A DNA stretch of 64,000 nucleotides, taken from the sequence record PQ390715.1; one strand, 5' to 3'. The position numbers and the translations under genes are program-made. Below are positions 62,458-63,423 of the stretch, in pieces. Numbering within the stretch: the first letter of the stretch is position 1; every line of letters starts with the position of its first letter. The notes beneath the pieces are model-generated. The model was not told the DNA's origin. It did not search any database and saw nothing but the letters and a program-made list of their open reading frames with translations. This DNA is from Escherichia phage SHEFM2K.

Positions 62458-63423
62458 TTAGAAATCTTCGTATTCGTACCCTTTTGCAAGTACTAACTTC
62501 TTAAGCTTTTGCATAGCTTCACTGTACTTTCGGTGTATTGATGAACGGGATTTAACATATTTTCCATTATCATCAACAAAACCATTATCAGCAATCTCAC
62601 GAAGCGTTTCAGGTTCATATTCACCTAGACCATGAACACGCTGGATAATCTCACGTTCTTTAGTACTCAATTCGTTAGTTAGTTCATTGATAGCATAACG
62701 TAAAGGTGCACGGATACTATCAACATTGAGGTTAAAATCAGAAGCAGGTGAATGAATAATGTCACCTAATGTACCATCTGTAACACCGTCTAATGGTGCA
62801 TCCAGTGAAGTGTATTCGCTTTGAAATAATAAACAATTATTAACATGCTGAATCTCAATCCCAGTACCCTCTGAGATTATTTCAGGTGTTGGGCGAACAC
62901 CATGTTTACGCATATATTCCTGGCAGAATCTTTTTACTTTGATCTTATGAACACTCATATAACGTGGGAAGTGTACCATATAGTTAGCGTCAGAACTTTC
63001 GTTATAGACTGTCATGTAAATACTAGAAGAAGCATAGGTAATGAACTTAACATTCTTATTAAGATCAAAGGTTTTTAGTGCTCTCATGAACCCCTCAACA
63101 CCATATGAAATCTTATCTTCAAATGGGATATAACAAGTACATTTACTTGCTACATCAATAATCAGTCCATAATTGTAACGAACTAACAGTTCAGTGTTTT
63201 TCTTTACATTGATACCAGCTTGAATATCACGAATTAGATCTTCATTGGAAACATTTGGTGGTCGCTTAAGTGTAATATTATATTTGAAACTGCTTTGTAC
63301 TTTACCTTCATTATCATCTTTATCTTCAACGAAATCTAAGGCTTCTAGTGTGTTGACTTCTTCATTAGCAAAACATTCATCCAGAACTTCTTCGGCAATT
63401 GTATTTAAATCAAGCTTTTTCAC
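62458..63423 (-). CDS. sigma70-family sigma factor (phage-encoded), 321 aa
   Basis: ORF track (probable GTG start with AGGAG SD); region 2-like LVRYNYGLIIDVASK..GVEGFMRALKTFD..KFITYASSSIYM; region 4-like LSTKEREIIQRVHGLGEYEPETLREIA. Confidence 0.65.
   Translation of the reverse strand: MKKLDLNTIAEEVLDECFANEEVNTLEALDFVEDKDDNEGKVQSSFKYNITLKRPPNVSNEDLIRDIQAGINVKKNTELLVRYNYGLIIDVASKCTCYIPFEDKISYGVEGFMRALKTFDLNKNVKFITYASSSIYMTVYNESSDANYMVHFPRYMSVHKIKVKRFCQEYMRKHGVRPTPEIISEGTGIEIQHVNNCLLFQSEYTSLDAPLDGVTDGTLGDIIHSPASDFNLNVDSIRAPLRYAINELTNELSTKEREIIQRVHGLGEYEPETLREIADNGFVDDNGKYVKSRSSIHRKYSEAMQKLKKLVLAKGYEYEDF

Follow-up and report, generated by a model that had tools for sequence, protein, structure and literature searches.

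Jumbo phages of the RaK2-like group have no RNA polymerase (RNAP) of their own, and a sigma factor is a hallmark of the group (PMC7824862). In Pectobacterium phage CBB, three promoter classes have been described (RpoD-like promoters, a divergent class with the -35 box TGAAACG, and late promoters with the motif ATAAATA) and the sigma orthologue, CBB_513, was placed in the predicted early region (PMC5259590). The literature up to 2026 says of the sigma factor only that it would "likely associate" with host RNAP. In the SPO1-type scheme (PMC13401047), a phage middle sigma replaces the host primary sigma on the host core enzyme. Here we analyse the orthologous gene of Escherichia phage SHEFM2K (sequence record PQ390715.1), which lies on the minus strand at 62458..63423 of the 64,000-nucleotide stretch under study (hereafter, the window). 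Published work annotates this sigma factor without assigning promoters to it; we offer a concrete and testable wiring of the early, middle and late programme, in which host sigma70 would be followed by the phage sigma at middle promoters and then by a gp55-like sigma at late promoters. From the sequence comparisons described below, we consider this cascade probable.

The DNA flanking the gene is 98.5-99.6% identical to that of Escherichia phages SP27, slurp01, phAPEC6, G17, 121Q and PBECO4, which belong to the genus Asteriusvirus of RaK2-like jumbo phages (approximately 350 kb), and the protein shares 99% of its residues with the sigma factors annotated in SP27, phAPEC6 (gp066c), 121Q (gp167) and G17 (G17_00146). 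Most of the related Asteriusvirus records already annotate the open reading frame (ORF) as an RNA polymerase sigma factor, and the gene call itself adds nothing new to what is known. New are the definition of the clade, the loss of the melting dyad (W433/W434 of E. coli sigma70), the altered region 3.0, an insert in the helix-turn-helix (HTH) of sigma4, the three promoter classes and the co-variation of promoter box and recognition helix. An initial annotation of the window, made from the sequence alone, had proposed a 321-amino acid (aa) sigma70-family protein that starts at GTG behind a good Shine-Dalgarno sequence and ends at its own terminator. The ORF listing of the window gives a single ORF at these positions with a GTG start, and its translation holds all four peptides quoted in that annotation. 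The gene and its parts are as follows:

62458..63423, minus strand: sigma factor coding sequence, 321 aa (stop codon 62458-62460, GTG start 63421-63423)
63430-63434, minus strand: Shine-Dalgarno sequence AGGAG, 6 nucleotides (nt) from the GTG, read directly from the sequence
63250..63423, minus strand: N-terminal acidic extension, residues 1-58 (motif KKLDLNxIxEEVLDECF; from alignments and low model confidence)
62986..63249, minus strand: sigma2 domain, residues 59-146 (W433/W434 replaced by S133/S134, Q437 by M137)
62746..62964, minus strand: sigma3 domain, residues 154-226 (region 3.0 P153-R-Y-M-S-V158 in place of P-V-H-M-I-E)
62485..62709, minus strand: sigma4 domain, residues 239-313 (recognition helix from R293, S-R-S-S-I-H-R-K-Y)
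62548..62586, minus strand: clade-specific insert in the sigma4 HTH turn, residues 280-292 (GFVDDNGKYVKS), from alignment and model
62422..62452, minus strand: intrinsic terminator (stem-loop 62429-62452 and a T run)

The upstream gene ends in a stop codon that overlaps the Shine-Dalgarno sequence. The first 18 residues (MKKLDLNxIxEEVLDECF) are kept in 12 of the 12 close homologues, the first internal methionine is residue 113, and one close homologue is likewise recorded with V as residue 1; together, these observations support the GTG start. The terminator begins a few bases past the stop codon with a 10-bp GC-rich stem (62452-62429) followed by the T run, and its folding energy of -18.2 kcal/mol (z = -4.85) was reached by 0 of 200 shuffles. 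The same terminator is annotated in the GenBank record of G17. The initial annotation was, therefore, right about the ORF, its start and its end.

The protein belongs to the sigma-70 family. Region 2- and region 4-like segments had been pointed out initially, with searches of the Pfam models Sigma70_r2 and Sigma70_r4 suggested as a check. Both models matched just below their gathering scores (Sigma70_r2: E=7e-5, 23.0 bits against 24; Sigma70_r4: E=3e-5, 23.8 bits against 24.1, covering region 4.1 and the first helix), and region 3 was found as well, with Sigma70_r3 matching residues 162-226 above gathering (E=2e-9, 37.8 bits against 25.3). The sigma-70 superfamily model TIGR02937 scored above its cutoff (44.7 against 42.9 bits) and PHROG 351, 'RNA polymerase sigma factor', matched at 1.9e-60. 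Sequence matches in the PDB were to RpoD, SigA, SigB and RpoS only, at E values of 1e-17 to 1e-23 (6e-23 at best with the family profile). An AlphaFold model (mean predicted local distance difference test score, pLDDT, of 69) has three ordered helical domains at residues 59-146, 154-199 and 239-313 and is disordered in residues 1-58 and in the linker of region 3.2; when it was compared with the PDB using Foldseek, each of the 50 top-ranked matches was a sigma factor or a sigma-containing RNAP complex. Sigma2 (regions 2.1-2.4) is identified by TIGR02937, by the PDB alignments to region 2 of RpoD, SigA and RpoS and by the helical model, and the HTH of sigma4 (regions 4.1-4.2) by the model and a pairwise alignment, which recovered the recognition helix.

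These features also place the protein within the family. Because it has a sigma3 domain, it is not an extracytoplasmic function (ECF, group 4) sigma factor, and with both sigma3 and sigma4 it differs from the sigma2-only factors of the T4 gp55 type; the late-sigma PHROGs 12791 and 234 match another gene. Nor does it have the characters of a primary sigma of the RpoD type (group 1). The Pfam search returned no match to PF00140 or PF03979 for regions 1.1/1.2, NCBIfam RpoD_Cterm matched residues 79-283 at 6e-25 with 88 bits against a cutoff of 354, the RpoD, RpoS and SigA equivalog models of NCBIfam all scored far below their cutoffs, and W433/W434 and H455/E458 are replaced. Lacking regions 1.1/1.2 and scoring below the equivalogs, the protein is labelled too specifically where some records call it 'RpoD'.

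When the family profile was searched against 1.84 billion cluster representatives, 19 proteins were recovered at E<1e-30, followed by a step down to generic sigmas near 1e-27. By this sequence criterion, the phage sigma falls in a clade of its own, found only among RaK2-like jumbo phages. It has the marks of the clade (PHROG 351, the sigma4 turn insert G-[FY]-x-D-x-x-G-K and R298), and its close relatives are 47-99% identical. For the comparison of residues, we aligned the protein pairwise to E. coli sigma70, using a reference whose length is consistent with residues 375-613, and the alignment of WW with SS was reproduced in the HMMER output of the PDB search. Conserved are D403, G408, G411, M413, F419, K426, Y430, P453 and R584. 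The changes fall in region 2.2, where the core is contacted (Q406 to S, E407 to Y, N409 to V), in regions 2.3/2.4 (W433/W434 to S133/S134, R436 to Y, Q437 to M), in region 3.0 (V454 to R154, H455 to Y155, E458 to V158) and in region 4.2, which keeps R584 as R293 and replaces E585 by S294, R588 by H297 and Q589 by R298. In the clade alignment, the W433/W434 dyad is present in 0 members, the region 3.0 motif P-R-Y-x-S-V is invariant in close relatives and R298 is almost invariant throughout. The insert of about 9 residues in the sigma4 HTH turn (G281-F-V-D-D-N-G-K-Y) is clade-wide, and the model folds it as a short beta-hairpin-like loop ahead of a long recognition helix (pLDDT of about 85-88). 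The acidic N-terminal motif is kept in most clade members, and the extension that carries it could act like region 1.1. The C-terminal GYEYEDF was considered as a T4-style tail for binding the sliding clamp and dropped, as it is conserved in close relatives and not across the clade.

A protein altered in this way might imitate a sigma factor without initiating transcription, and silence the host by tying up its core RNAP or sequestering one of its factors; the lost W433/W434, the changes at Q406, E407 and N409 and in region 3.0, and the HTH-turn insert would all suit such a role. A decoy, however, would not need what the phage sigma preserves: all three domains that read DNA, conserved in the roughly 19 clusters formed at 50% identity; the pocket for A-11 (F419, K426 and Y430); and a recognition helix that co-varies with a promoter box, as described below. 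For these reasons, we regard mimicry as highly improbable.

To define the promoters that such a factor could serve, 350 kb of phAPEC6 were scanned and three classes were found. The early class, TTGACA-N-TATAAT, has spacers of 16 (n=18), 17 (n=16) and 18 (n=4) nt. The middle class, G[GA]GACA-N16-TA[TC]AAT, is rigidly spaced, with 17 matches at a spacer of 16 and 0-2 at spacers of 13-15 and 17-20, all of them on the gene strand; with a relaxed box there are about 22 convincing sites, nearly all of which carry TGn or GTG before the -10 element. Middle sites precede genes for gyrB/topoisomerase, a DnaB-domain protein, SSB (two sites), an RNaseH-like protein, NrdD and nudix proteins, as well as tRNA-Ser, tRNA-Arg, three ORF-free elements and a gp55-like sigma. 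The late motif, ATAAATA, occurs 54 times against approximately 200-215 expected, and 33-35 of the 54 copies, depending on the distance window, lie upstream of ORFs, among them genes for the major capsid, scaffold, portal-operon, sheath and baseplate proteins. The related motif TATAAATA is likewise depleted in the window (2 copies against 14.3 +/- 3.1 expected; 50527-50534 and 51175-51182, minus strand). Such avoidance is in keeping with a working late-promoter motif that is counter-selected at other sites. The window holds 20 copies of the early-type cassette, mostly at 2-16 kb, and two middle-class sites, against 0 in 100 shuffles:

62395..62422, minus strand: middle promoter GGGATG-N16-TATAAT with TGn, directly past the sigma terminator and pointing into an ORF-free structured-RNA element
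51217..51244, minus strand: middle promoter GGGACA-N16-TATAAT with TGn, the same site as phAPEC6 29494

The first of these is a predicted target of the phage sigma. The CBB middle motif, searched as TGAAACG-N10-22-TATA, had no match in the window; GRGACA is the Asteriusvirus version of the CBB middle -35 box.

Several observations stand beside these classes. The middle promoter at 51217-51244 is closely followed by the TATAAATA copy at 51175-51182, and the gene there may have tandem middle and late promoters. In phAPEC6 (locus L003, 6230-6438), GGGACA-N16-TATAAT is directly upstream of tRNA-Ser(TGA) and tRNA-Arg(TCT), which suggests that the phage tRNAs belong to the middle regulon. Early-type promoters form a dense array in the window: about 20 near-consensus promoters (TTGACA/TTGCAA, N17, TATAAT, A/T-rich upstream) are found on the minus strand at ~2100-15800, 55720-55771 and 60034-60085, and many are followed by a GC-rich hairpin (e.g., GGGGAGAAATGGTTCTCCCC) directly before the Shine-Dalgarno sequence of a small ORF. 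Terminator-promoter modules of the form GGGTTGACTTCGGTC(G/A)GCCC-TTTTT-GCTATAAT recur on the minus strand at 40152-54008, with related copies at 1-52, 2704-2772 and 6380-6448; in these, the -35 element TTGACT sits within the terminator stem, 18 nt before TATAAT, and the signals for termination and re-initiation overlap.

The second phage sigma of phAPEC6 is gp237c, which adjoins gp46/47-like genes and matches PHROG 12791, 'sigma factor for late transcription', at 3e-154; its gene is preceded by a middle promoter. An earlier candidate for the gp55-like protein, gp215c, had been guessed from its middle promoter and was rejected, since its PHROG is an unknown family only. Three promoter classes thus face three sigma factors, and the middle class would fall to the phage sigma studied here by elimination. 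The architecture agrees with this assignment, because a rigid bipartite spacing suits a factor with sigma2 and sigma4, and late promoters with one element suit a gp55-like factor reduced to sigma2.

The initial annotation had set the phage sigma at a different class, proposing that it switches RNAP from canonical early promoters to -35-less cassettes in a gene array of the window. The array consists of 11 tandem paralogues of about 1.2 kb each that start with MLPFGRM (~21200-34000, plus strand), most of them behind a GTATTAAATATAGTATAAT cassette; their counterparts in phAPEC6 (gp001-010 and others) are annotated as RCC1-repeat proteins. The cassettes are real and are, as claimed, -35-less: each has a terminator hairpin, GTATTAAATATAGTATAAT, 15 nt containing the Shine-Dalgarno AGGAGG, and ATG, with a perfect TATAAT and no match to a -35 element. 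Eight copies are listed ahead of the 11 paralogues, and they are assigned to no other holoenzyme. Pairing them with the phage sigma is not supported, however. They have neither the GRGACA box nor TGn, and neither of the two middle sites of the window falls in the array; the full sigma4, the clade-conserved helix and the co-varying box would be superfluous at a promoter without a -35 element; and, if TATAAT were the -10, its distance of only 15 nt from the ATG would allow a 5' untranslated region of about 8 nt. The cassette also holds TTAAATA, one base away from the late ATAAATA, for which a gp55-like late sigma exists. Among NTAAATA heptamers, TTAAATA occurs at 0.50 of expectation, and nearly all of its gene-proximal cases are the cassette itself. 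The array is, we think, an improbable target, and the second, gp55-like sigma is the more plausible reader of the late ATAAATA promoters, which have no -35 element. The broader idea that promoter classes mark a temporal switch survives in part: there are several classes and a role in switching is sensible for the protein, but the classes are at least three instead of two and the phage sigmas number two.

A second line of evidence for an assignment to the middle class comes from the comparison of lineages. Drawing on one set of IMG/VR genomes, we collected the promoter of the gp55-like gene from 19 contigs, sigma sequences from 11 and 21-kb replication regions from 13, and compared the recognition helix of sigma4 with the -35 box of the middle sites:

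Lineage A (Asteriusvirus): helix SRSSIHRKY, box G[GA]GA[CT], 21 sites in phAPEC6
Lineage B: helix SRTSLHRCY, box G[GA]GA[CT] at 17 of 19 sites, the other form at 0
Lineage C (CBB/GAP32-like): helix SKATLSRRY, box G[GA]AA[CT] at 50 of 58 sites, the other form at 0

On the opposite strand, used as a control, there were 1 and 3 chance matches among 36 phAPEC6 sites and 0 in lineages B and C. The same change between G and A is seen when orthologous promoters are compared, and again in the promoters of the structured-RNA copies described below. The sigma of lineage B is 40-46% identical to that of C and 36-37% to that of A, yet it shares both helix and box with A. Box and helix, then, vary together by lineage. 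The residue that changes, 297 (H297/S297), aligns with R588 of E. coli sigma70, and the base that changes is the third of the -35 element. In classical suppressor genetics, R588 of E. coli sigma70 reads the third base of the -35 hexamer. R584, the reader of the 'AC' part, is retained wherever 'AC' is. These correspondences lead to a predicted residue-to-base code in which R293/H297 would go with xxGAC and K293/S297 with xxAAC.

The timing of the phage sigma was approached through its promoters. These lie past the end of the window, and G17 (98.8% identical) was used instead. Three perfect (12/12) sigma70 promoters are found upstream on the gene strand in G17, the nearest about 1.6 kb away, ahead of the gene that lies four places before the sigma gene. 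No terminator with a T run was annotated or detected by scanning in G17 between this promoter and the sigma gene; the interval holds a hairpin without a T run, and a weaker 10/12 promoter, nearer to the sigma gene, overlaps that hairpin. The sigma gene is the last one ahead of the terminator. With consensus host-type promoters upstream, the gene is probably transcribed early by host sigma70, in agreement with what the CBB authors inferred for their phage.

In the cascade that we propose, the host sigma70 holoenzyme would transcribe the sigma gene early, as the last gene of a short operon, from TTGACA-N16/17-TATAAT. The phage sigma would then bind host core RNAP, and the resulting holoenzyme would initiate at the bipartite middle promoters, GRGACA-N16-TATAAT with a TGn/GTG extended -10. 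From these would be expressed the genes for replication and nucleotide metabolism, the tRNA cluster, the structured RNAs and the gene of the gp55-like late sigma, which, once made, would read the -35-less ATAAATA promoters of structural genes. The specificity of the phage sigma would come from its altered sigma4 recognition helix, the expanded HTH turn and the modified region 3.0.

The most serious competitor to this cascade leaves the middle promoters to the host. TGnTATAAT is near-optimal for sigma70, and the phage sigma is without H455 and E458; host sigma70 could thus read the middle promoters through the extended -10 together with a separate GRGACA-binding phage factor, with the phage sigma serving a smaller regulon or being partly redundant. 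Phage T4 makes its middle switch in such a way, by MotA/AsiA, and the replication region of phAPEC6 encodes a small protein similar to PHROG 639 'transcriptional regulator' (gp219c). However, the spacing, rigid at 16 nt, and the way in which the box changes with the sigma4 helix from lineage to lineage point to a sigma as the reader, no MotA or AsiA homologue is named in any annotation or paper that we examined, and the model would leave a full-length, early-expressed sigma without a promoter class. Although we judge it unlikely, a reading of the middle promoters by host sigma70 through the extended -10 takes most of the probability that lies outside the proposed cascade.

Other observations weigh against the cascade as well. 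The co-variation amounts to about one clean evolutionary event, that of lineage C versus B. RaK2, which gave 3-5 promoter sites, keeps R293 and H297 in its helix VRGTLHYKF but has TGAAC-like boxes (3 sites) that a simple code does not explain. Host sigma70 could fire the middle promoters unaided, TGnTATAAT being a strong extended -10 for it, and the phage sigma no longer has H455 and E458, with which sigma70 recognises TG. Region 2.2 differs at key residues that contact the core, and the W-dyad is missing; it cannot be taken for granted that a holoenzyme forms and melts DNA in the normal way. The timing rests on the promoter sequence of a relative because the promoters are beyond the end of the window, and a literature search for transcriptomics or biochemistry on Asteriusvirus or RaK2-like sigmas found annotations only. 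Weighing these points against the co-variation and the match of three classes to three sigmas, we still favour the phage sigma as the probable reader of the middle promoters.

Directly past the sigma terminator is a 650-nt stretch free of ORFs that consists of the middle promoter and an RNA unit of about 430 nt. This candidate and its paralogues are as follows:

61940-62422, minus strand: structured RNA candidate of about 430 nt, directly past the sigma terminator, with its own middle promoter at 62395-62422
150882-151341, 229646-230130 and 285202-285775 of phAPEC6 (MK817115): structured-RNA paralogues, each behind a middle promoter and without a downstream ORF

The RNA is present in 3-5 copies per genome, mostly unannotated, in the majority of the 61 matching records of RaK2-like phages. 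An alignment of 18 sequences supports 72 base pairs, 43 of which have compensatory double changes; 95.5% of cells were paired, against 37-43% with slid partners, and the covariation score was 0.448, against 0.05-0.08 in controls. Most copies also carry an intrinsic terminator with a conserved CCCCTGCGGGGGG hairpin after it. The RNA matches no Rfam family: searches of the window at gathering thresholds and of 61800-62460 at E<=1 returned terminator-like noise only. A likeness to RNase P CR-V found no support. About 500 nt downstream of the RNA is a 262-aa ORF (60580-61368, minus strand) with a Cys-rich HNH-like motif, annotated in G17 as 'similar to HNH endonuclease', and the phAPEC6 RNA copy at about 230 kb is also near an annotated HNH endonuclease gene (gp310c).

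On its other side, the sigma gene is preceded in the same transcription unit by a gene for a possible hydrolase:

63445..63942, minus strand: HslV-like gene, 165 aa, directly upstream of the sigma gene

The protein has an invariant N-terminal M-T-T and TDS, QK and GSG motifs. Its model (pLDDT 86.6) had HslV, the 20S proteasome beta subunit and connectase as best Foldseek matches (probability 1.0, template modelling score 0.5-0.59), consistent with a predicted HslV/proteasome-like N-terminal nucleophile (Ntn) hydrolase fold. The pairing of the HslV-like and sigma genes is conserved in lineages A (Asteriusvirus) and B (metagenomic) and in RaK2. Neither Pfam, searched with the four genes ahead of the sigma gene, nor the PDB, searched with the 165-aa sequence, gave a match; the ORF at 47159..47833, expected from phAPEC6 to encode a gp0.7-like kinase, had no Pfam match either.

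We tentatively suggest, with slightly less than even confidence, that the protein is the dedicated middle sigma of the entire RaK2-like group. It would melt TATAAT without the W-dyad and read GRGACA/GRAACG with a re-coded helix, behind an expanded HTH turn, that co-evolves with the box; as the second member of a three-sigma cascade it would also drive the 3-5 structured-RNA copies of each genome, and it may cooperate with the HslV-like hydrolase. Should the assignment of the middle promoters to the phage sigma be confirmed, it would provide a natural sigma70 relative that works without the W-dyad, as well as orthogonal sigma/promoter pairs for E. coli.

Compared with known systems, the closest counterparts are the sigma factors of group 2 jumbo phages (CBB_513 of CBB and those of GAP32, RaK2, 121Q, gp167, and phAPEC6, gp066c), which are the same gene in the same early-region context; the orthologues of RaK2, CBB and related phages are 31-46% identical and the Asteriusvirus proteins 99%. 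The -35 box differs, being TGAAACG as published for CBB and GRGACA in the phage described here. With E. coli RpoD and RpoS the phage sigma shares the sigma2-sigma3-sigma4 architecture, the best sequence and fold matches and a target -10 of TATAAT, but it has no region 1.1, region 1.2 or non-conserved region, and W433/W434, Q437, H455, E458, E585, R588 and Q589 are replaced. Phage T4 resembles the system in its late motif (TATAAATA, against ATAAATA here) and in the position of the gp55-like protein next to gp46/47-like genes. Its gp55 is a minimal, sigma2-only factor, and the counterpart is phAPEC6 gp237c, a gene other than the one studied here; T4 itself lacks an RpoD-like sigma and makes its middle switch by remodelling host sigma70. 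In Bacillus phage SPO1, gp28 is the sigma of middle genes and is followed by gp33/gp34 for late genes. No specific sequence relationship to gp28 was found, though none was looked for. Host and promoter sequences differ, and the late factor here is T4 gp55-like and not gp33/34, yet SPO1 gp28 offers the functional analogy: an early phage sigma for a bipartite middle promoter that is then followed by a late sigma.

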